Of a DNA stretch of 64,000 bases, positions 4,805-40,725 are shown piece after piece. This DNA comes from Polyangiaceae bacterium. Lineage in GTDB: Bacteria > Myxococcota_A > Polyangia > Polyangiales > Polyangiaceae. The notes beneath the pieces were generated by a model. The model worked only from the letters and a program-made list of their open reading frames with translations. It was not told where the DNA came from and searched no databases. Where the stretch lies: positions 96,001 to 160,000 of the forward strand of contig JBNKBE010000001.1 of NCBI GenBank assembly GCA_050287085.1. Direction: 5' to 3'. The position numbers and the translations under genes are program-made. The stretch's first letter is position 1, and each line of letters begins with the position of its first letter.

Positions 4805-6657
4805 TGCTCCCCGTTGTGGCCGCGGGTCGTCAACTCGACCTTCCAGCTCTCCGCTACGGCTAGTGCATCCCGGGGCACGGCCTCGAGCAGGAGCGTTCCC
4901 ACTTCGGTGATCGTCGCCCGCAGCGTCACCGCTACGACCTCCCCGACGGCTCGGCCCACCGCGGGCAGTGTAACTTCGAGGGGAGCCAGCTCGCTCAAGA
5001 GGTCGCAGCTTTCCAGCTGGGTTCCGGCCGCATCGTGGCGTCGCTCGCTAGAACCGAAAAAGCGAAAGCGCACCGGTTCACCCACCACCACGAGCAACTC
5101 TTGCTCCGGCAGCTCGACGCGGCTTCCTTCTTCCATGCCGAAAGGTGCTACGCAAAGTGCCTCAAGGGGCGGCTCAAAGCCGGGCACCGCCGGCATCGGG
5201 CTCTCAATACCCACGTAGTAGGCCCTGGCCGTTCCACCGCGGATTCGGAGACCACGCCCGTGACGGACGCTGCCGTAGTACGCGGCGCCACGAGCCACCG
5301 CCAGGTCGAGCTCTGTGCCAGGCAAGACACTGGCCGGGGGCGCTCCGATGGCCATAAGCCAACGATTGAGCGTCGCAAGCAAACGATCACGAATCGCCTT
5401 CGACTTCAAGACGCCGCCGTTGAACAAGACACGCGTGGGTTTGAGCAACGCGCTCGCGGCCGGCGTACTCTCGGCCTCGCCTAGCGCACCGGCCTGACGC
5501 GAAAGGAAGGCTGCCAAGTGTCGCGTCACAGCGGCATCACTCGCATAGGCCAGGCCCAAACGACTGAGTGCCGCGCGCGGTCGTTCTTGTGGACGCGCGT
5601 CGGCATCGACGTCAGGAAAGAACGCTTCAACGACAATGCGCTCCACTTCGTCTCGAGTCAGCTCGGTGCGGAGCGCTGACGCAAAGAGATTTGCGCTTCG
5701 ACTGGTTATCGCAATCGGGACTGCGTCAAGCTCCGGACGACTGAGCAGCTGCTCCTTCGCTGCACGGCAACGCTGCGTGAGTGCGGCCATTTGGTAAGCG
5801 TCGAGCTTCCTGCCGGGCTCGCCCAACTTGGAGCGCAGCGCATAGGCCAGCGCGAGATCCATGTTGTCGCCACCGAGCAAGATGTGATCGCCGACGGCAA
5901 CGCGCTCCAAGATCAGGCTACCGGCCTCTTCACGAGCCTGAATGGCAGAAAAGTCAGTTGTACCGCCGCCGATATCAACTACGACTATGACGTCCCCTGG
6001 AGCTAGGTGCTCGCGCCAGCGCTCACCGCATTGTTCAATCCAGGAGTAGAGCGCAGCTTGCGGCTCCTCGAGCAAGGTCACATGCTCAAAGCCCGCAGCC
6101 GCCGCCGCCTCGTGGGTGAGTTCACGCGCCGCGGCATCAAAGGACGCGGGGACCGTCAGCACGACGTCACAGCCATCCAGCGAGTCAAGCGCCGCCCCCG
6201 AACGCCCAGCGTCAGCACGCCAAGCCTCGCGCAAATGCTGTAGGTAGCCCGTTGACACTGCGACGGGCGAACGTTTGGGCACGTCTTCCGGCGCATGAAG
6301 GGGCAAGAACGCCTGGCGACGATCGACATGGGACTGCGATAGCCAGCTCTTGGCGCTTGATATCACTCGTCCCGGCGCTTCTGCCGCCCGGACGCGGGCC
6401 CACTCGCCGACCGCAAAGCGTTGCTCCTCATCCCAGGGCACGACCAGCGCTCCATCGCTGTCATGGGCCATGTAGGTGAATGACGGCAACAACGGGAGCG
6501 ATTCGAGAGCTCCTTGCGAAACGAGCTGCGGCACGGACAAAACTGAGACCGAAGTGCCCCCCTTCAACGGGGAGTCAGAGCGCTCGATTGCCGCGCTCGC
6601 GAGCGCACAGTGGGTAGTCCCAAGATCGATACCGAGGGCCAAGCGTGCTTCGCTCAT
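4801..6657 (-). CDS. Atypical Hsp70-family protein (ATPase domain plus divergent beta-rich C-domain, no lid)
   Basis: GIDLGTTH, TVPASFD, EEPQAA, DIGGGTTD, GGDNMD and AVARGAA; start taken at ATG 6657 (MSEARL). Confidence 0.88.
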   Translation of the reverse strand: MSEARLALGIDLGTTHCALASAAIERSDSPLKGGTSVSVLSVPQLVSQGALESLPLLPSFTYMAHDSDGALVVPWDEEQRFAVGEWARVRAAEAPGRVISSAKSWLSQSHVDRRQAFLPLHAPEDVPKRSPVAVSTGYLQHLREAWRADAGRSGAALDSLDGCDVVLTVPASFDAAARELTHEAAAAAGFEHVTLLEEPQAALYSWIEQCGERWREHLAPGDVIVVVDIGGGTTDFSAIQAREEAGSLILERVAVGDHILLGGDNMDLALAYALRSKLGEPGRKLDAYQMAALTQRCRAAKEQLLSRPELDAVPIAITSRSANLFASALRTELTRDEVERIVVEAFFPDVDADARPQERPRAALSRLGLAYASDAAVTRHLAAFLSRQAGALGEAESTPAASALLKPTRVLFNGGVLKSKAIRDRLLATLNRWLMAIGAPPASVLPGTELDLAVARGAAYYGSVRHGRGLRIRGGTARAYYVGIESPMPAVPGFEPPLEALCVAPFGMEEGSRVELPEQELLVVVGEPVRFRFFGSSERRHDAAGTQLESCDLLSELAPLEVTLPAVGRAVGEVVAVTLRATITEVGTLLLEAVPRDALAVAESWKVELTTRGHNGEQ

Positions 6658-6700
6658 AACGTGCCACCCAAGCAAACCAGCTGAACAACCGCCGCAGACA

Positions 6701-7330
6701 TCAGAGCTCCAGCTCTGCGGGAGCCAGAACGCGCGCGTTCCGTGCTCCGACGAGGTCCGGCAAGCTCAGCTGCAGGACGCGCCAACCGCGATGGCGCAGC
6801 GTTCCCTCGTAGGGCCCGGCCCCCGCAACCTGGCCTGTCAGTTTCAGCTCTTGCGTGTCAAACCCCAGCTCCGCACGCACCTGAGCTCCCTCCGGCTCAG
6901 AGCGGATCGGCTCGATCGTAAGGTGGCTCTGCAGCGCTTTGCGGCACCCCTCGTGGACCACGCGCGCCGCTGCGCCGACCTGCTCGTCTGTGTAGTCCAG
7001 GACGTCTTGCTGAAGAAAGTCGATGAGCCGTCCCTCGCGCTGCAATACCTCGAGCACTAGGAGTGCGCCCTGCTCGCGGCTCACCCGCACGCTCTCGTCG
7101 ACTGGGCTCGGAGCGGGGGAGCTATTGTGTGGAGCGGCGCTCGAAGGGGAGGGGCGAGACGGGACCGAAGCTGCGTTCCCAGCAACAGAAGGCTCCGCTT
7201 CTTCCCCGGCCGGCGCCCTGGCAGGTGACGCCTCCGCGGCTAGGGCCGCGATGCGACGCGCAAAACGCGGCTCGAAAAGCAGGCGAAAGAAGCACGCAAA
7301 CGCCAGGAACATACGGGAAATAAAAGACAT
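6701..7330 (-). CDS. DUF2760-like protein (N-terminal hydrophobic segment, GrpE-like C-terminus)
   Basis: LQREGRLIDFLQQD, VGAAARVVHEGC, GTLRHRGW and VLAPAELEL; lies directly upstream of the Hsp70 pair. Confidence 0.8.
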   Translation of the reverse strand: MSFISRMFLAFACFFRLLFEPRFARRIAALAAEASPARAPAGEEAEPSVAGNAASVPSRPSPSSAAPHNSSPAPSPVDESVRVSREQGALLVLEVLQREGRLIDFLQQDVLDYTDEQVGAAARVVHEGCRKALQSHLTIEPIRSEPEGAQVRAELGFDTQELKLTGQVAGAGPYEGTLRHRGWRVLQLSLPDLVGARNARVLAPAELEL

Positions 7331-7640
7331 GACGGGCACCTGAGGCGGAGTCTAGAGCGAGCCCCAGGGCGCGCGAAGAACAAACTTCCAGCGCCGGCCG
7401 CAAAGGCGCATCGGCCCAGCCGACCTCCCCCCTGTCTGTGATCCCCCGAGCCACGGTCCCCCGGGGGGCCCGGACCCAGTATGCGCAAGTCAACAGCCTT
7501 CACTTGCCCGAACATGATCCTCGGCATCCATCGGTCCGTCAGTCCGGGACTAGCCCGCGAAGGCTACAAACCTGACGCAATTGCAGTGTTTATTCACCGG
7601 CCCGTTGACATCGCGTCCAGCAAATGATGAATCCCGATCT

Positions 7641-8330
7641 GTGAGGATCTGGGAGTTGGGCGCCATAGCCCTAGTTGCGTCTGCTTGCGTTCCAGCGGGC
7701 ACGCGCGTTTACCGAAACACCGAAAACGCCCCGACGTTGGTCACCTTCCAGGCGGAGGAATGCACGCTGCCCTCTGGCTTGCGCGACCTCAAACTTGATG
7801 AGGTGGAGCTCCGGATGGCTCAAGGGCTGCGCGACTACTCGCTGCTGGTGCTGGACGCTGAGGGCGGCGGTCTCGAGGTCGGCGACCATCAACTGGAGAG
7901 TGGCAACCACATCTTCACCTACCGACTACCGAACACGGCCTGGCGCGTCGTCGTTCCCGACGAGCGCGGCGCTGACGCCCGGATCGAATACTGGCGCGGA
8001 GTAGGCCCAAACAACCCGCTGAACGCACCCCCCGACAAGACGTGCGAGCTGAAGGCCATAAGCGTTGCAGAGCCGGAGGAGATGGCTGGGACGGAGCCGA
8101 ACGATCCTGCAGAGGAAGGCTCAAGCAGCGACGCGCCCGCCGACGCTACATGCACCCCGGGCACAACGCAGCGTTGTGTTGGTAGCGGCGCCTGCGACGG
8201 AGGACAGTCCTGTCGGGAAGATGGCAGCGGCTACACCCCTTGTGACTGCGGCTCGAACTCGCCAACAACAGGGCCCAAAGCTGAGGGGCCCAGAACCAAC
8301 GAAGATTCCGACGCCCAGGAGCTACCATGA
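7641..8330 (+). CDS. Putative lipoprotein with C-terminal Cys-rich module
   Basis: Lipobox-like VASAC after GTG 7641; CTPGTTQRCVGSGACDGGQSCREDGSGYTPCDC module; ATGA overlap with the next gene. Confidence 0.6.
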   Translation: MRIWELGAIALVASACVPAGTRVYRNTENAPTLVTFQAEECTLPSGLRDLKLDEVELRMAQGLRDYSLLVLDAEGGGLEVGDHQLESGNHIFTYRLPNTAWRVVVPDERGADARIEYWRGVGPNNPLNAPPDKTCELKAISVAEPEEMAGTEPNDPAEEGSSSDAPADATCTPGTTQRCVGSGACDGGQSCREDGSGYTPCDCGSNSPTTGPKAEGPRTNEDSDAQELP

Positions 8331-9148
8331 ACCGATACTTGCACGACCAGCCCGGCAGCACCCCAGCACTAGTCCGCCGCTTCTGCGCGATTGGACTCTT
8401 CGCAGCCGCGGCTCTGCCCCAAACCAGCGCTCAAGCTGAGGGCTACGGTCCAGCGAAACCGCGTAGCGGCGCCCAACCCTCGACTCAAAGCGAAAACGCA
8501 GGCGCCGGGCTGGGGCAGGGCGCTGGGCTGGGGCAGGGCGCTGTGCCCACCCGCTCCGTCATGGTGAGCGTGGAAGAACTGGTCTCATATAACATCACAA
8601 CCAGGAAGGTAGAGCTCAAGAACGAGTTGGGCACCACCACATCCACCATCACCATCACCGACACTGGCCTATCGTTCCTGGGAGGGGGCGCCCCCACCCT
8701 AGCGCTGGACTACCTGAGCCCAGCAGGTTTCACCATTGGCGGAGCCCTCAGCTACGGCAGCGTCGAGGAGGAGGTGGAACTCAGCAGCGACAACGTAGAC
8801 ACCACCGTCTCCCAAACAGCCAACGCGCTGATGCTGCGGCCGCGGATTGGATTCATGTTCAGCAACGCCGATTGGGCATTTCACCCGCGCGTGGGCCTCG
8901 TCTACAACGCGATAGAGATCCCTGACGACTTCGCCGCAGAGGACGACGTCGAGCAGACCTTCACCGCTCTCAGCGTCGAGGCAGCCATCATCCGCTACAA
9001 TCACGACCACTCCTTTGGGGTCAGCTTGCGTCCCGCCTACTACCATGCGCTAAGCGCAGAGCGCAAAGTCGGCAGTACAACCGTACAGAAGGACGAGCCA
9101 GATCTGGGTGTCCTGGTCGTTTCACTAGGCGTACAGGCATTCTTCTAG
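8327..9148 (+). CDS. Putative outer-membrane beta-barrel protein
   Basis: Signal peptide (AQA), alternating amphipathic strands (LRPRIGFMF, HPRVGLVY), C-terminal LGVQAFF. Confidence 0.65.
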   Translation: MNRYLHDQPGSTPALVRRFCAIGLFAAAALPQTSAQAEGYGPAKPRSGAQPSTQSENAGAGLGQGAGLGQGAVPTRSVMVSVEELVSYNITTRKVELKNELGTTTSTITITDTGLSFLGGGAPTLALDYLSPAGFTIGGALSYGSVEEEVELSSDNVDTTVSQTANALMLRPRIGFMFSNADWAFHPRVGLVYNAIEIPDDFAAEDDVEQTFTALSVEAAIIRYNHDHSFGVSLRPAYYHALSAERKVGSTTVQKDEPDLGVLVVSLGVQAFF

Positions 9149-9489
9149 GCTCCTCAAAGAGCGACGCGAGCAGGGCAGTATTCGCTGGCCAAGGGCCGCC
9201 GCTCGCAACAGGGGCTTCATCGAGGCCGGAGCGCGGCGGCGTCGAGCTAAGATCAGCCTGCCGACGTCGCCTTTGAATCAGCCCACTTGCGCCGCCTCAT
9301 CGAAATCAGGCGGCCCGCGGACCCGACGAGAGCCAACGGAGCCGCGCGTCGCACCAAGAGGGCGACGCCCTTCGTCGTATTGCTGGCAACGCGCTTCGGA
9401 AAGCGGCGCATCGCTCCCGAGGGCGATGCGCTTCAATGCTGCCTGGTGACGATTGCGGTCCCAGTAGCTCGCTTCTTTCGAGTTGAGCG

Positions 9490-11124
9490 CTAGACGGTTG
9501 GCAATGACTTCGGACTCAACTGCGCGAAGAAGTCGTTGCCCTTGTCATCAACGACGATGAATGCCGGAAAGTCTCGCACCTCGACTTTCCAAACCGCTTC
9601 CATGCCCAACTCCGGGTACTCCAAGACCTCAACGCGCGTGATGCTCTTATCCGCGAGCCGCGCGGCGGGCCCACCGATCGAGCCGAGATAGAAGCCACCG
9701 TGCTTTCGGCACGCGTCGGTTACCTGCTGGCTTCGATTACCCTTGGCCAGCATGATCAGGCTGCCGCCCAGCTGCTGAAAGCCGTCCACGTAGGAGTCCA
9801 TGCGCCCCGCCGTGGTTGGCCCAAAGGAACCCGACGCGCGGCCTTCGGGGGTCTTGGCTGGCCCGGCGTAGTAGACAATGTGGTTCTTGATATAGTCGGG
9901 CAGTCCCTCACCCCGATCGATGCGTTCTTGCAGCTTGGCGTGAGCGATGTCCCGCGCGACAACGATCGTGCCGCTGAGCGATAGTCGCGTTCGGATCGGA
10001 TATTGAGTCAGCTCCCGGCGCAACTCAGCCATCGGACGGTTGAGATCGAGACGCACCACATCGCCGTCCAACTCCTCCGTGCTGGGATCCGGCAAATATT
10101 TCGCCGGATCGGTTTCCAATTGCTCCAGAAAGACACCCTCTTTCGTGATCTTTCCGAGGGCCTGCCGGTCTGCTGAGCAAGAAACGCCGATCCCGACTGG
10201 GCATGATGCCCCATGACGAGGCAGCCGAACAACCCGTACATCGTGGCAAAAGTACTTGCCCCCAAACTGCGCCCCGATTCCGGTATTGCGCGCCAAGTCC
10301 AGCACTTGCGCTTCCAACTCCAGGTCTCGAAACGCATGTCCTAGCTCGTTGCCTTGAGTGGGAAGGGTATCGAGGTAGCGCGCGCTCGCCAGCTTGACAG
10401 TCTTGAGATTGTACTCCGCCGAGGTGCCGCCCACTACGATGGCAAGATGGTACGGGGGGCACGCTGCCGTCCCCAGGCTTCGGATCTTAGCGTCGATGAA
10501 AGCCAATAAGCGCTTCGGATTCAGCAGCGCTTTGGTTTCTTGATACAGATAGGACTTGTTGGCGGAGCCGCCGCCCTTGGCCATGAACAGGAACTTGTAT
10601 TCCCCCCCCGGCGTTGCATAGAGCTCGATCTGCGCGGGAAGATTGGTTTTGGTGTTGCGCTCTACGTACATGGAAAGCGGCGCCAGCTGGCTATAGCGCA
10701 GGTTACGCGTCTGATAAGTGCGCCAAATGCCTCGCGATAGCGCCTCCGAATCGTCGCCGCTCGTGAAGACGCGTTGCCCCTTCTTGCCCATGACGATCGC
10801 GGTCCCTGTGTCCTGACACATCGGAAGGACGCCAGCAGCCGCGATATTGGCATTCTTGAGCAGCTCGAGAGCCACGAAACGGTCATTGGGGCTGGCCTCC
10901 GAATCTTGCAGGATGCGGCTCAACTGCGCGAGATGACCAGGTCGGAGGAAGTGCGCAATATCGCCCAAGGCCGCTTCCGCTAGGAGCGTTAGAGCCTCGC
11001 TTTCAACCTTGAGCACCTCCGCCCCCTCGAAGGTTCCCACGCTGATGAAATCGCTCGTCAGGCGTCGATAAGGAGTGCCATCCGCTCCGAGGGGGAGCAT
11101 GTCTTGGTATGCGAAGTCGTTCAT
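9490..11124 (-). CDS. fumA: Fumarate hydratase class I (Fe-S, FumA/FumB type)
   Basis: [30 protein letters not shown] and GSIGGPAA motifs; 544 aa. Confidence 0.97.
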
Positions 11125-11754: not shown

Positions 11755-13089
11755 ATGATCCAATTTCACATCTTGTCCTTCGAGGGCCCCGACCAATACG
11801 CACGCGCAGGAGGCATCGCGAGCCGGATCTGCGGACTGGCGCAGTCGCTCAGTGAAAACTTCGAAACCCACTTGTGGTTTGTCGGCGATCCCGATCTCCC
11901 CGGCCACGAGGTGCACGGCAAGCTTCACCTGCATCGTTGGTGCCAATGGATCAGCGAGCATCATCGCGGCGGCGTATACGACGGAGAGGAGCAGAAGGCG
12001 GCCGACTACGCCAAGTCTCTCCCTCCGTACCTGGTCGAACACCACCTACTGCCCCATTGCCAAGCGGGAGGTCGCGTCGCCGTCCTGGCAGAGGAGTGGC
12101 ACACCGCCCACGCTGTGCTACACCTCGACTGGCTGGCAAAGCGCGCAGGGATCCGCAACAAGGTCAGCATGCTGTGGAATGCCAACAACACCTTCGGCTT
12201 CCATGCCATCGATTGGCCGAGCCTTGCCGGCGCCTCCACCATCACGACCGTATCGCGCTACATGAAGTATCGCATGCATCCCCTCGGGGTCGATCCGCTG
12301 GTCATCCCCAACGGCATAGAGGAGGACGCATTTCTCACCCCTGAGCGTGAGGCGCTCACGGAAATGTATGCACGTTTCGCAGATCGCCCCGTGCTTGCCA
12401 AGATGGCGCGTTTCGATCCGGACAAGCGCTGGACCCTCGCGATCGACACCATCGCCGAGTTGAAGCGCCGCGGTCGCAACCCCCTGCTCATCGCCCGTGG
12501 CGGGATGGAAGCCCATGGCCACGAAGTGCTCTCGCGCGCAATGCAGCGAGGACTACGCATTTCAGAGCGACGTTTTGATCAAGCCGGCCCCCGCGGACTG
12601 CTTTCGGCTCTCACCAACGTCGATCAAACAGACATCGTCTTGCTCGGTTCCCACGTTGACCCTGACGCTCGTCGCGTGCTGTTCCGGAGCGCGAACGCCG
12701 TTCTCGCCAACAGTGGTCACGAACCGTTCGGTCTGGTGGGGCTAGAGGTGATGGCTGCGGCCGGAATCGCCTGCACCGGATGCTCCGGCGAGGACTATGC
12801 AGTTCCAGGCCAGAACGCGCTCGTCCTGGAAACGGACAACCCTCTGGAGTTCGTGCAACTATTCGAACGCCTCGAACCGGACGACGAGGAGGAACTCCGC
12901 CGTTCCGGGCGGGAGACAGCCCGCCAATACGCGTGGTCGCGAGTGGTGGACAGAGCATTGCTCCCTCGCGTCGACAGTCGTTTGCGCACCATCAAGCCCC
13001 TCGCAGAGCGACCTCTTGCCCAACTGCTGCGGCTAGATGAGGATGCCCCCCACAGCAAGCGCAGAGCTCGTTCTCAGGTCGCCTGCTAG
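11755..13089 (+). CDS. GT4 (GT-B) family glycosyltransferase
   Basis: AGG near the N-terminus, TVS, IPNG, ARFDPDK and EPFGLVGLEVMAAG (EX7E); start at ATG 11755. Confidence 0.85.
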   Translation: MIQFHILSFEGPDQYARAGGIASRICGLAQSLSENFETHLWFVGDPDLPGHEVHGKLHLHRWCQWISEHHRGGVYDGEEQKAADYAKSLPPYLVEHHLLPHCQAGGRVAVLAEEWHTAHAVLHLDWLAKRAGIRNKVSMLWNANNTFGFHAIDWPSLAGASTITTVSRYMKYRMHPLGVDPLVIPNGIEEDAFLTPEREALTEMYARFADRPVLAKMARFDPDKRWTLAIDTIAELKRRGRNPLLIARGGMEAHGHEVLSRAMQRGLRISERRFDQAGPRGLLSALTNVDQTDIVLLGSHVDPDARRVLFRSANAVLANSGHEPFGLVGLEVMAAAGIACTGCSGEDYAVPGQNALVLETDNPLEFVQLFERLEPDDEEELRRSGRETARQYAWSRVVDRALLPRVDSRLRTIKPLAERPLAQLLRLDEDAPHSKRRARSQVAC

Positions 13090-13123
13090 CCAAAGGGCTC
13101 GCGAGTGAAGGCAGACCTGGGCT

Positions 13124-13156
13124 GGTCCCAACGCCGCGGGTCCCAACGCCGCGGGT
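13124..13156. repeat. Short tandem repeat, 2x15 bp GGTCCCAACGCCGCG
   Basis: Read directly in the gap between convergent genes. Confidence 0.8.
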
Positions 13157-13226
13157 TGCTCTCGGCTCGCCGCGCGTGGGCGTGCGTCTGGAGCGTTCAG
13201 CGGACGCGCTCTGAGCTAGAGAGCTC

Positions 13227-14147
13227 CTAACGGTTCAGGGCGATATCCAGAAGCTCAGCAACGCTCGTTTCAGCGACGCATTGGTAGCGATCCGACGCCC
13301 CGTAGTAGAGCTTCATACTGCCGTCGTCTTCCACGACGTGCGAGGACGCGAATACGCAATTGGGCGTGTGTCCCGCGTTCTCATAGGGCATCTCGGGCGT
13401 CAAGATGCACTCGTCGCCAACCCGCAAGAGCTCCCACGGGCGCTCGAGATTCACCAACGCAACCCCCGTGTTGTAGACGTATTCGTAGTCGCAAACGACC
13501 GATACGGCATGAAACACGATAAGCCAGCCGTGCTCGGTACGGATGGGCGTGCCACAAGGACCAATCTTGCCCCATCCGAAGCTACAGTCCTCCTTGGACA
13601 TGAGTCGCCGCTGATCCCCCCAGTAGCGCAGGTCTGGACTGTGTGTGACCCATATTTCGCCCACCGCGTTGGGGCGCTCGAGTGCGGTAAACAAGCCCCC
13701 TACCTTCTCAGGGAACAAGACCGTATTGCGAAAGCCGGTACCCGAAATGAAGTGCTCGAATTGAAACGAGCGCATGTCCATCGACGTCATCAATGCCATG
13801 CGTGCCTCCGTGCCGTGGGCGCAATACGTCAGATAGTACGTATCCCCGATTCGCGTTAGGCGCGGATCATACTGCACGCGAGCATATCGCTTGTATTCGT
13901 CATCCTCTGGCACTGGGATAACGTCGCCAATGGTCCAGCTATCGATGCCGTTCGGACTCTCTGCAAGCGCGAAGAAATTGTAGAAGTTATACCCTTCGCA
14001 GCGCAACACCATCACATAGCGCCCGTCACACTTCACGACGGAACTATTGAATACACCGCGACAGTTGAACGGCAACATGTCGGCTGTAATGATGGGATTC
14101 TGCGTGCTGCGACGCACAACGCGTCGCTTCGAATAGACCCGATCCAT
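13227..14147 (-). CDS. GH130 family glycoside phosphorylase (beta-mannoside phosphorylase-like)
   Basis: NPII, VFNS, YDPR, RNTVLFPEK, KIG..PI.TEHGWL, PNCVF and YYGASD. Confidence 0.88.
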   Translation of the reverse strand: MDRVYSKRRVVRRSTQNPIITADMLPFNCRGVFNSSVVKCDGRYVMVLRCEGYNFYNFFALAESPNGIDSWTIGDVIPVPEDDEYKRYARVQYDPRLTRIGDTYYLTYCAHGTEARMALMTSMDMRSFQFEHFISGTGFRNTVLFPEKVGGLFTALERPNAVGEIWVTHSPDLRYWGDQRRLMSKEDCSFGWGKIGPCGTPIRTEHGWLIVFHAVSVVCDYEYVYNTGVALVNLERPWELLRVGDECILTPEMPYENAGHTPNCVFASSHVVEDDGSMKLYYGASDRYQCVAETSVAELLDIALNR

Positions 14148-36917: not shown

Positions 36918-37418
36918 CTATCCGACGCCCTGCTCTCCGCCGCGCTGGGGCTCGACCTTGAGCGCAGTTCCATACGCCAGTACTTCGACGCCCGCAGTGC
37001 CCTTGTTGTTGCCAGCGCTGGATGCGAGGCGTGACGTTTCAAGCCGAACGCCGACGACCGTGTCGAAGCCCCCCATGACCGCTTCGTCCAACATGCGGAG
37101 CAAAGCCTCACGCCGAGCGCGTTCCATCAACGGCTCGTACGCACGCAGACGCCCGCCAAAGATCTGTTTGAAGCTCGTAACGAAACGCTTGTAGTAGTCG
37201 AGAGACACGACAACGCTTCCCCCTACCAACCGTGCGCTAGCCACCTTGAGCTCCGGCGCGGGCCCCAGGGTGCTAACAGGAAAGCGCAAAAACTCGAGCT
37301 CCCGTTCCCGCAGACTGGCGAAGTGCTGACGCTCGACATGGCGTCCGAGCAGCCACCCCAGGAGCGTCAACAGCAGTGTTAGCCCAATGCCCAGGCCCTG
37401 AGTTGCAAGCTCAGTCAT
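36918..37418 (-). CDS. YbjQ-like (UPF0145) protein with N-terminal TM helix
   Basis: FGGRLRAYEPLMERARREA and EVLAYGTA. Confidence 0.8.
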   Translation of the reverse strand: MTELATQGLGIGLTLLLTLLGWLLGRHVERQHFASLRERELEFLRFPVSTLGPAPELKVASARLVGGSVVVSLDYYKRFVTSFKQIFGGRLRAYEPLMERARREALLRMLDEAVMGGFDTVVGVRLETSRLASSAGNNKGTAGVEVLAYGTALKVEPQRGGEQGVG

Positions 37419-37420
37419 CG

Positions 37421-37735
37421 CTACTCCACACGAACTGCGGTGCCATAGGCGTAGAGCTCTGCGGCCCCCTGGGCAACACTGCTCGTCGAGTACCGCACGT
37501 TGACGATGGCATTGGCCCCACGGAGTTCCGCTTGGCGCACCATGCGCTCTGTCGCCTCATCCCTCGCTTCTGACAGCAGCTCCGTATAGCCCTTGAGCTC
37601 ACCCCCAACGATATTCTTCAACCCGGCCATGAAGTCCCGTCCGATATGCTTCGCCCGTACGGTACTGCCCGAGACGATGCCGAAGAATTGCACGATGCGC
37701 CGCCCCGGAACGTCCTCTGTATTGGTCAAGATCAC
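37421..37735 (-). CDS. YbjQ (UPF0145) family protein
   Basis: GRDFMAGLKNIVGGELKGYT, GANAIV and AYGTAV; GTG start at 37735. Confidence 0.9.
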   Translation of the reverse strand: MILTNTEDVPGRRIVQFFGIVSGSTVRAKHIGRDFMAGLKNIVGGELKGYTELLSEARDEATERMVRQAELRGANAIVNVRYSTSSVAQGAAELYAYGTAVRVE

Positions 37736-37904
37736 GGACCAATAGTAGCCTAACGCCGGAGACGGCCAAGGCGGAAGCCAACCACCACCGCTCAAAGCCT
37801 CATTTTCTTGTCTGGGGAACCAACAACAGGCAGGCTTTGGTACGCAGGCCGAGCAGGAGGCACACTGAGCAGCTCGGTTCTAAGCCACACCACGAAAGGG
37901 CTCG

Positions 37905-38453
37905 ATGCATTGGATCGCCACGGGTACCCCCTGGGACGCGCTGCTCCCCCTGGAGGCTGGAACAACTCGACTGGAGCTTGCCGCAACCGGGCGAGCTCGT
38001 TGCCGCGCCTGCAACGCGGCCGTACCCCGCGGCGCGCTCCGCTTCGGAGAACAGCTCCCTAACCCCTTCAACGACAAGCCGACTTGGTATTGGTACCATA
38101 TCGAATGTGCTGCGCTGCGCCGAAGCTCGAGCGCCCTGCCGGTATTCGAGACCCTGGGGCAGCGAACTACGGTCGAACCAGACCTGACTCTGGCCGTCAC
38201 GCGGGGAGCGGCCAACCCTCGCCTCGAACGATTGATGGCGCTGGAGCGGGCGCCGTCCGGGCGGGCAAAGTGCCGTGCTTGTGAACAGCTCATCGTCAAG
38301 GGTCACCTCCGCTTCCCGCTCCAGATCTTCGATTCTGGCCGTTTCACCCCCATCGGCTATATCCACGACATCTGCCAGCTGGCCTACTGCGGTGCCGAAC
38401 TAGACCCCATGCGCGCCGCCGCCCTGGGAGTCGGCACGCCGGAAGTCGAGTAG
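37905..38453 (+). CDS. Protein of two tandem PARP-type zinc fingers
   Basis: ELAATGRARCRAC..GALRFG..WYHIEC and ERAPSGRAKCRAC..KGHLRF..YIHDIC. Confidence 0.8.
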   Translation: MHWIATGTPWDALLPLEAGTTRLELAATGRARCRACNAAVPRGALRFGEQLPNPFNDKPTWYWYHIECAALRRSSSALPVFETLGQRTTVEPDLTLAVTRGAANPRLERLMALERAPSGRAKCRACEQLIVKGHLRFPLQIFDSGRFTPIGYIHDICQLAYCGAELDPMRAAALGVGTPEVE

Positions 38454-39705: not shown

Positions 39706-40725
39706 GTGCCCAGCCGGCAGATTCTCGCGAACCGTCCCGCGAACGACGTGCAAGACCAAGCGTCACTCAAGCGTCTGCTGTCGACGGAGAACGCGTCGCT
39801 CACGGGCTTGCGCCTGGCGGGGCTGGACCTGAAGGGGGCGCAGCTCAGTCACCGTGACCTGAGCTGCGTCGACCTCAGCCACGCCGACCTCCGCGGCGCC
39901 AACTTGGTCGGTTGCCGCATGCACAACGCGATACTCCACGGAGCCAACCTGGAAGGCGCGGAATTCATGGGGGCTGACCTCCATGGCGCCAACCTCAGCG
40001 AGGCTCAGGCAGCCCTTGGTGGCTTCGGTCGCGTCAACCTGACCGACGCAAACTGCTTTGGCATCAATCTGGAGGGAGCCACTCTGACCGAAGCAGTTCT
40101 CACCGGGGCAGACCTTCGCATCGCCAACCTGTGTCGAGCGCGCATGCGCGACGCGCGCTTGCAGCGAGCCAACTTCCTCAAGAGCAAACTGCTGGACGTC
40201 GACCTCGAAGGCGCCGACGTGCACGAAACCTGCTTTGTGGAAGCCGATCTCCGCAGAGCCCGTCTTCGCGGGCTCCGGCGCTTCGCGAACGCACATTTCT
40301 TCCACGCAGACGTGCGCGAGATCGACTTCAGTGGCGCTTACCTGCTGCGGCGGCAGATCCTCGACGAAAACTACCTGCTCGAGTTCCGCTCTCAGAGCCG
40401 CGCCGCCATGGTTGTCTACTGGATCTGGTGGGCGACGAGCGATTGCGGTCGCAGCATCCTGCGCTGGGCCACTTGGACCGTCGTCGTCTGGCTCGCGTTC
40501 GGCGCAGCCTATGAACTGTGCGCGCTCGACTACGGGGCGCACCGTACCTTGATCTCTCCATTCTATTTCAGTCTGGTGACACTCACGACGCTCGGCTACG
40601 GGGACGTTGTCCCCGCTTCTCCCGCCGCGCAGGTCGTCGTCATGGCGGAAGTCGTGCTGGGCTACGTCATGTTGGGTGGGCTGCTCACCATTATTTCCTC
40701 GAAGATGGGAAGGCGTTCAGACTGA
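39706..40725 (+). CDS. Pentapeptide-repeat protein fused to a 2-TM potassium-channel domain
   Basis: Long A(D/N)LxX run followed by FYFSLVTLTTLGYGD selectivity filter and TM helices. Confidence 0.85.
   Translation: MPSRQILANRPANDVQDQASLKRLLSTENASLTGLRLAGLDLKGAQLSHRDLSCVDLSHADLRGANLVGCRMHNAILHGANLEGAEFMGADLHGANLSEAQAALGGFGRVNLTDANCFGINLEGATLTEAVLTGADLRIANLCRARMRDARLQRANFLKSKLLDVDLEGADVHETCFVEADLRRARLRGLRRFANAHFFHADVREIDFSGAYLLRRQILDENYLLEFRSQSRAAMVVYWIWWATSDCGRSILRWATWTVVVWLAFGAAYELCALDYGAHRTLISPFYFSLVTLTTLGYGDVVPASPAAQVVVMAEVVLGYVMLGGLLTIISSKMGRRSD

Follow-up and report, generated by a model that had tools for sequence, protein, structure and literature searches.

The 64,000-nucleotide stretch of Polyangiaceae DNA analysed here (contig JBNKBE010000001.1, positions 96,001 to 160,000; hereafter the window) encodes at positions 37905-38453 of its forward strand a protein of 182 amino acids that is made of two tandem zinc fingers of the type found in PARP1 and has no enzyme domain. 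The PARP-type finger is the textbook eukaryotic sensor of DNA breaks. On balance, we favour the view that the bacterial protein is a zinc-dependent DNA-break binder, likely serving in trans as an accessory to break repair and most plausibly to end-joining by Ku and LigD. This reading draws on the sequence of the protein and on the genes that surround its relatives.

A stand-alone protein of two PARP-type fingers

The gene is a real one and starts with ATG. It appears in the list of open reading frames, and its frame was retained when genes were picked by GC content at third codon positions. A first-pass annotation of this DNA, made from the letters alone, had described a stand-alone zf-PARP protein without a catalytic domain, composed of two CX2C...HX2C units, and this description was borne out by the sequence and by the predicted fold. 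The strings it quoted are found exactly in the translation, with ELAATGRARCRAC...GALRFG...NPF...WYHIEC in the first unit and ERAPSGRAKCRAC...KGHLRF...YIHDIC in the second. Both sets of zinc ligands are intact (C33, C36, H65 and C68 in finger 1; C123, C126, H154 and C157 in finger 2) and their codons were verified on the DNA. All eight ligands are invariant in a family alignment of 29 sequences and in 10 sequences from the same genus.

The Pfam zf-PARP profile (PF00645) matched the protein in two stretches with 67.7 bits (E 1.6e-18), compared to a gathering cut-off of 39.3 bits. In the genome scan, the fingers scored 43.7 bits (finger 1) and 25.3 bits (finger 2) individually. zf-PARP is the sole Pfam domain of the protein, with neither the PARP catalytic domain (PF00644) nor WGR (PF05406) present, and NCBIfam has no model for it. 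When PDB sequences were searched with phmmer, the protein matched PARP1 F1F2 (2n8a, E 1.5e-10), further PARP1 finger entries and the DNA ligase III finger (1uw0, E 5.5e-6). Its two halves align with each other by BLASTP (E 1e-10), with 18/44 residues identical (41%). The zf-PARP identity of the protein is thus far beyond chance. The gene is divided as follows:

37905..38453, + strand: whole gene, stand-alone double zf-PARP protein of 182 amino acids, stop codon at 38451-38453 (open reading frame list, Pfam)
37905..37964, + strand: N-terminal extension, residues 1-20 (family alignment, in which most members have no such extension)
37965..38120, + strand: finger 1, residues 21-72, with R30, R42, R46, the NPF loop and W63 (phmmer alignment to PARP1 10-57, superposition, invariant columns)
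38121..38231, + strand: helical linker, residues 73-109, predicted to pack the fingers into one unit (AlphaFold model)
38232..38399, + strand: finger 2, residues 110-165, with S118, R120, K132, R136, F147 and Y152 (second Pfam stretch, internal repeat, alignment to 1uw0, invariant columns)
38400..38450, + strand: short C-terminal tail, residues 166-182, with a helix at 168-174 in the model (the conserved helical tail of the family is longer)

Most of the same-genus sequences align only from residue 15-23 of the window protein onward, and residues 1-10 were modelled with a predicted local distance difference test score (pLDDT) of 58. No further in-frame ATG, GTG or TTG is found ahead of residue 23.

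An AlphaFold2 model of the protein was built from the 29-sequence alignment and reached a pLDDT of 91.1 and a predicted template modelling score (pTM) of 0.85. The predicted fold is a three-stranded sheet with a zinc hairpin, followed by a helix that bears the second ligand pair. Helices come after each finger core in the model (the canonical zf-PARP domain has ~90 residues including a C-terminal helical part), and those of the linker span residues 74-87, 92-103 and 105-109. In a Foldseek search of the PDB, all 22 rows shown at E<0.01 belonged to fingers of PARP1 or ligase III, followed by a row with an E of 0.26. Using VIA-align, residues 18-72 of the model were superposed on residues 6-60 of PARP1 Zn1 with a root-mean-square deviation of 1.3 Å over 55 residues (Z 6.5, 31% identity), and residues 102-182 on the DNA ligase III finger 1uw0 with a Z of 4.5. 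Finger 1 thus superposes well on Zn1, but both fingers together fitted PARP1 F1F2 on a single-strand break or nick poorly (7.3 Å over 149 residues for 2n8a and 5.7 Å over 137 for 9mi8). Calling the protein a Zn1-Zn2 mimic, as the first-pass annotation did, was therefore too strong. The model rather predicts two individual fingers of PARP fold that form, together with the helical linker, one rigid body in an arrangement of its own. The picture was the same for a relative taken from the ku/ligD-linked clade described below (pLDDT 90.0, pTM 0.82), with three of its five models reaching only 76-77.

Residues K119, S120, R122, K134, R138 and W157 of PARP1 F2 are conserved in PARP-like fingers and bind DNA, according to passages in Eustermann et al. 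(2011, PMC3094755). We derived their equivalents from the phmmer alignment to PARP1 and from the internal BLASTP alignment of the two halves. These are A27, T28, R30, R42, R46 and W63 in finger 1 and P117, S118, R120, K132, R136 and Y152 in finger 2, so that five of the six contacts are kept or conservatively replaced in either finger. R30, R46, R120 and R136 are invariant in the 29 family members and the 10 same-genus sequences. In the phmmer alignment the NPF loop of finger 1 lies on the SPMF loop of PARP1 Zn1, the hydrophobic loop that stacks on exposed bases in Zn1-DNA crystal structures. In each finger, the features by which PARP1 fingers engage DNA (arginines, an aromatic residue and a hydrophobic loop) are retained, from which we infer that the protein binds DNA breaks, and a role as nick or break sensor is the best-supported candidate.

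Distribution of the family and its ku/ligD context

In the protein collection, the family comprises 111 clusters of 159-227 amino acids (E up to 0.001 among 1039 candidates), all with PF00645 and nearly all named "hypothetical". It is a coherent, uncharacterised bacterial family with a typical length of about 175 amino acids. The JGI names "ribosomal protein L37AE/L43A" for three relatives and "cytochrome c553" for one were discarded, as they have no Pfam support. We then searched one genome per species with two family alignments (A2 and A3) as queries and found relatives encoded in 371 and 354 stretches, respectively; the same species-level search with the window protein alone as query found none. 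The metagenome-assembled genomes (MAGs) that carry the relatives are labelled Acidobacteriota, Pseudomonadota, Planctomycetota, Rhodothermota, Bacteroidota, Eisenbacteria, Krumholzibacteriota, Verrucomicrobiia and others. The survey of taxonomy and neighbourhoods that the first-pass annotation had proposed thus revealed a widespread family, with a ku/ligD context in a subfamily outside the window's phylum.

To describe this context, two samples of loci were used. The first consisted of the window, 20 loci from its phylum and the best 80 of the 371 cross-phylum loci, and was searched by tblastn with the Ku and LigD of the window's own genome. LigD was found in six of these loci, four of which also had Ku, and LigD-like pieces were seen in L088. 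The second sample, the best 80 of the 354 loci with 10 kb flanks, was centred on the ku/ligD-linked clade and contained 13 clear LigD loci, of which 11 had Ku, 13 DUF72 and eight the helicase described below. The samples overlap by 18 loci (16 by sequence, 2 by id), which leaves 142 distinct loci from other phyla. In total, 13 of these 142 loci have ligD no more than 8-10 kb away from the finger gene, and ku is present in 11 of the 13. By our rough estimate, fewer than one of the 142 loci would be expected to have ligD within 10 kb by chance; this assumes one or two ligD genes per ~5 Mb genome and is a reckoning, not a computed test. In L129, the presence of Ku, a three-domain LigD and DUF72 was confirmed by Pfam, as was that of LigD in L142.

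In eight loci (L198, L201, L212, L213, L219, L222, L228 and L235) the genes form a cassette, which lies upstream of the finger gene and no more than about 10 kb away. Here, ku and ligD are transcribed away from a row of genes on the other strand that encodes DUF72, a superfamily 1 (SF1) helicase/exonuclease and, as the last gene, the finger protein. The helicase is about 1,150-1,200 amino acids long and carries RNase_H_2 and SF1 helicase domains (AAA_11/AAA_12), and its gene abuts or overlaps the finger gene. By their labels, the MAGs concerned belong to six different groups (Eisenbacteria; Acidobacteria gp22 and Acidobacteriota; Polarisedimenticolia, with two MAGs; Verrucomicrobiia; Cryosericum; and a "Patescibacteria group" bin). 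Five further linked loci have no helicase, and in L129/L163 and L165 DUF72 directly precedes the finger gene. DUF72 matches TM1631 (PDB 1vpq, E 4.7e-35), which is described in parts of two papers as a predicted endonuclease-IV-like repair enzyme (PMC3828134, PMC4939058). A further source characterises DUF72, in the section concerned, as a TIM barrel with a close relationship to UV-damage endonuclease, and notes its enrichment in the vicinity of polB2 damage-response operons (PMC11791011). DUF72 and the helicase/exonuclease of the cassette may themselves be undescribed accessory genes of end-joining.

Among the Acidobacteriota, other recurrent neighbours (MacB/FtsX permeases, PadR, ABC ATPases, Ser/Thr kinases and PQQ propellers) were dismissed as non-specific, since they belong to large multi-copy families. 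In a Burkholderiales MAG, a weak LigD-like stretch (L177, 7175-7765, + strand; 74 bits over 199 amino acids) lies directly upstream of the finger gene and is possibly a stand-alone LigD-type domain.

The window's own genome, which is 96.8% complete so that absences there are not proof, encodes Ku on contig 7 and LigD on contig 25. This LigD has 971 residues and combines phosphoesterase, ligase and primase-polymerase domains, and its gene adjoins mutS2. The finger gene is the only zf-PARP gene found in the genome. On contig 25 (L148), ligD (4883-7795, - strand) is divergent from mutS2 (7717-10155, + strand), and a DUF72 gene (12859-13623, - strand) lies ~5 kb from ligD. This is the same proximity of DUF72 and a three-domain ligD as in the cassette, here without a finger gene. 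An RNase_H_2 gene with a second DUF72 gene on contig 8 was considered as a remnant of the cassette and rejected, as leuS lies in between and the RNase_H_2 protein has no helicase domain.

The same genome was searched for an ADP-ribosylation system. Bacterial PARPs mostly consist of WGR plus PARP domains, according to parts of Perina et al. (2014, PMC4245714), in which zinc fingers of bacteria are not mentioned. No PARP catalytic domain (PF00644) was found, a weak negative as the control genomes were silent too; no WGR (PF05406) was found, with positive controls in E. coli and D. radiodurans; and no PARG was found, with a silent control. Three macrodomain genes are present, a domain that is common elsewhere (8/14 control genomes).

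In the window's phylum, 36 of the 401 sampled genomes gave matches, five of which have only single fingers fused to larger proteins, leaving 31 two-finger carriers. Two carriers are included in this number whose gene is interrupted, one being split over two frames (G033:C41:12953-13487, L052) and one containing a single in-frame TGA (G049:C37:24557-25051). The finger gene is present in all 17 other sampled genomes of the window's genus, with 39-51% identity, and pyrD adjoins it in five of nine same-genus loci examined. As the PyrD proteins themselves are only 45-63% identical, the genus must be deep. The retention in 17/17 genomes together with the partial pyrD synteny therefore indicates that the gene is old, vertically kept and under constraint in this lineage.

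Ku is encoded by 81 of the 401 genomes. Its distribution over two-finger carriers and other genomes, tallied by hand from two genome scans, is as follows:

Whole phylum sample: Ku in 20/31 two-finger carriers and in 61/370 other genomes
Window's family (f1): Ku in 11/11 two-finger carriers and in 7/17 other genomes
Family f20: Ku in 2/10 two-finger carriers and in 1/24 other genomes

The enrichment of Ku among carriers is suggestive. An ATP-dependent ligase domain was found in eight of the ten Ku-less carriers that were covered by this test (G396 was left out).

The immediate neighbours of the finger gene in the window are, by Pfam, a beta-ketoacyl synthase, NIF3, pyrD, two divergent YbjQ_1 genes, an LPG_synthase_TM membrane protein and a pentapeptide/ion-channel protein. 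These are housekeeping and membrane genes and none is a partner, in agreement with the earlier statement that no partner is adjacent. An all-against-all BLAST of the window and 20 phylum loci (~8 kb per side) gave no shared neighbour beyond same-genus pairs, and Pfam annotation of the window and ten phylum loci showed neighbours of unrelated function. The two YbjQ_1 (PF01906) genes are arranged in tandem and separate pyrD from the finger gene (36918-37795, - strand). With these as tblastn queries nothing was found in nine same-genus loci (~1.5 kb flanks), five of which have pyrD near the finger gene, and the pair may be an insertion in the window's lineage. Downstream, the gene at 39706-40725 (+ strand) joins pentapeptide repeats to a C-terminal two-helix ion-channel domain (Ion_trans_2). 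In a single case from the window's family (L035, G275), a gene of the Endonuclease/Exonuclease/phosphatase family (PF03372, E 1.1e-8; 8309-9847, + strand) follows the finger gene on the same strand.

Longer fused homologues were not found with the window protein as query. With the family profile as query there were three, none of which gives a clear functional clue. In P0112 (397 amino acids), the two-finger module is combined with a 5-formyltetrahydrofolate cyclo-ligase domain; this form has one member, on one contig, and is possibly a gene-calling fusion. P0113 (1,080 amino acids) and P0114 (1,051 amino acids) have the two-finger module at the N-terminus, followed by ~900 residues without a Pfam match. 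Single fingers occur in two other settings in the phylum. In L056, L057 and L058 (G182, G152) and L064 (G305) a single zf-PARP finger is found at the N-terminus of proteins of ~480-520 amino acids, with no other Pfam domain except a C-terminal DUF3553 in L064. These proteins contain a motif resembling LxLADxLxxxGDxRGE, which may be that of the TIGR02996 "repeat-companion" domain. In L061 (G220) and L062 (G380), the single zf-PARP finger forms the C-terminus of proteins of ~1,200-1,400 amino acids that contain HEAT repeats and DUF4132. Elsewhere, DUF4132 occurs in fusion with WGR domains, which, if it holds, would mean that a second DNA-sensing module of PARP1 is used in a parallel way.

Weight of the evidence and alternative explanations

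In the mechanism we propose, the enzyme-free two-finger protein would bind DNA nicks or ends in a zinc-dependent and structure-specific manner and would assist break repair in trans, as an accessory factor that senses breaks or holds ends. The likeliest pathway to be served is the cell's own Ku-LigD end-joining, perhaps together with DUF72, a link that we infer from the gene context in relatives only. Speculatively, the rigid finger pair could grip both sides of a break. A bolder form of this idea, which we regard as doubtful, makes the protein a third player of end-joining: the rigid double finger would clamp both sides of the break and hand it to Ku, LigD, the DUF72 nuclease and the SF1 helicase/exonuclease, and the widespread module would be a prokaryotic forerunner of the break sensors of PARP1 and ligase III.

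Several observations weigh against a break binder in the service of end-joining. The fingers are minimal, since of the 87 positions of the PF00645 model only 1-54 align to finger 1 and only 1-24 to finger 2, and their predicted arrangement is unlike that of PARP1 F1F2 on nicked DNA. With an isoelectric point of 8.5 (5.3-9.1 in the family), the protein is not notably basic. It also has diverged from its family: part of the conserved C-terminal tail (consensus ...RLxxFxxxLxxE...) is missing, with the family profile match stopping at position 161 of 176, and in a quick tree of 100 family members, from which the fragment L052 was left out, its branch is 2.23 compared to a median of 0.25. Linkage to ku/ligD is limited to the 13 of 142 loci and was seen neither in the window nor in any of the 20 phylum loci. 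Six of the seven ku/ligD-linked loci on the tree sit in one clade of 16 rows (SH-like approximate likelihood ratio test 96). As the linked loci are mostly in one clade, the link may be a property of that subfamily and reaches the window protein by homology alone. The helicase of the cassette was not found in the window's genome with one query. Furthermore, the enrichment of Ku among carriers is confounded by large genome size and relatedness, and 11 of the 31 carriers in the phylum, including 8/10 in family f20, have no Ku, two of them (G131 and G156) having no ATP-dependent ligase domain either. Ku is therefore not obligatory for the finger gene.

The protein could instead be a sequence-specific or general DNA-binding regulator, or a nucleoid protein, that acts on intact duplex and controls transcription. 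Its small size, the lack of an enzyme domain and the variable, mostly metabolic or membrane neighbours would suit such a role, as many solitary regulators look like this. However, the zf-PARP fold is known for structure-specific and not sequence-specific recognition, according to passages in PMC3094755, and the residues that contact breaks are conserved. No conserved target gene adjoins the finger gene in the 21 phylum loci, the single recurrent context is a repair cassette, and the near-neutral isoelectric point speaks against a histone-like coat. We consider this explanation unlikely. Slightly less likely still is a zinc-stabilised protein-protein adaptor, or a binder of RNA or another nucleic acid, that reuses the scaffold of the PARP finger. 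The prediction of fingers and linker as one rigid body, unlike the beads on a string of PARP1, is consistent with it, the conserved C-terminal helical tail of the family could be a docking motif, and single fingers are fused to large non-enzymatic repeat proteins (HEAT, DUF4132) in the same phylum. Conservation of the DNA-contact arginines and the aromatic residue in both fingers, and the repair-gene context in 13/142 loci, argue for DNA breaks as the target instead.

The first-pass annotation had also left room for a partner in trans from repair, from ADP-ribosylation or from an anti-phage system, and only the first gained support, from the ku/ligD genes near 13/142 relatives and from the Ku and LigD of the window's own genome. 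An anti-phage or conflict system that senses foreign DNA ends is very improbable. The helicase of the cassette partly matches defence helicase models (MkoA/MkoC, DpdJ), albeit in the generic SF1 core only, whereas the finger protein and DUF72 have no PADLOC match (PADLOC-DB 2.0, 0 families at E up to 0.01). In the window, the finger gene is surrounded by housekeeping and not by defence-like genes, and vertical, partly syntenic retention in 17/17 genus members is unlike typical defence islands. Break sensing for an ADP-ribosylation system encoded elsewhere in the genome is the least probable of all, for although zf-PARP fingers feed PARP1 catalysis in eukaryotes and three macrodomain genes are present, these are of a common kind, the searches for PARP, WGR and PARG returned nothing within the limits given above, and no such gene was among the recurrent neighbour clusters annotated. 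An accessory of break repair, most plausibly of Ku-LigD end-joining, thus remains the reading that we prefer.

Comparison with known systems

A literature search, which had most subscription journals outside its reach, turned up no publication about bacterial zf-PARP proteins, and none that connects the finger gene with ku/ligD or DUF72 with ligD. The findings raise the question whether bacterial end-joining has dedicated break-sensing accessory factors, and also whether the sensor modules of eukaryotic PARP1 and ligase III derive from a bacterial stand-alone protein. Both questions are directly testable, because a widespread two-finger protein recurs in an operon-like cassette with ku, ligD, DUF72 and a helicase/exonuclease. 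This protein is small and confidently predicted, and its expression and assay should be straightforward.

Bacterial end-joining is usually described as consisting of Ku and LigD only. Both components are encoded in the window's genome, and ligD is found near the finger gene in 13/142 loci of relatives. The finger protein, in contrast, is not a described component of this two-component system, and it occurs in 11 phylum carriers out of 31 that are Ku-less.

With Zn1 and Zn2 of PARP1 (F1 and F2; PF00645; 2n8a, 4av1, 3od8, 3odc and 9mi8), the bacterial protein shares the domain family, the tandem pair, the CX2C...HX2C pattern and a near-identical ligand spacing. It also retains the arginines, aromatic residue and hydrophobic loop with which PARP1 engages DNA. 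On the other hand, Zn3, BRCT, WGR and the catalytic domain are absent, and the fingers are minimal cores of ~50 residues. Whereas the fingers of PARP1 are flexibly tethered, those of the bacterial protein are predicted to be locked by the helical linker.

The N-terminal finger of DNA ligase III alpha (1uw0) is the same domain and a break-sensing finger that serves a ligase and not a PARP. If the bacterial protein assists LigD, this would be its closest functional analogy. Ligase III alpha differs in having one finger that is fused to the enzyme, while the bacterial protein has two fingers on a separate polypeptide and is tied to LigD by gene neighbourhood in some relatives only.

In plant ZDP, PARP-like fingers and an enzyme that cleans DNA 3' ends are combined in one chain. 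The bacterial cassette similarly sets the finger gene beside the predicted nuclease DUF72 and the 3'-phosphoesterase of LigD, but as separate genes, and the activity of DUF72 is only predicted. AtZDP is named among the PARP-like finger proteins in a passage of PMC3094755. Taken together, the break-sensing module well known from eukaryotes has a real but uncharacterised bacterial variant in the window protein, and the link of this variant to end-joining genes is reproducible in a subfamily of its relatives.

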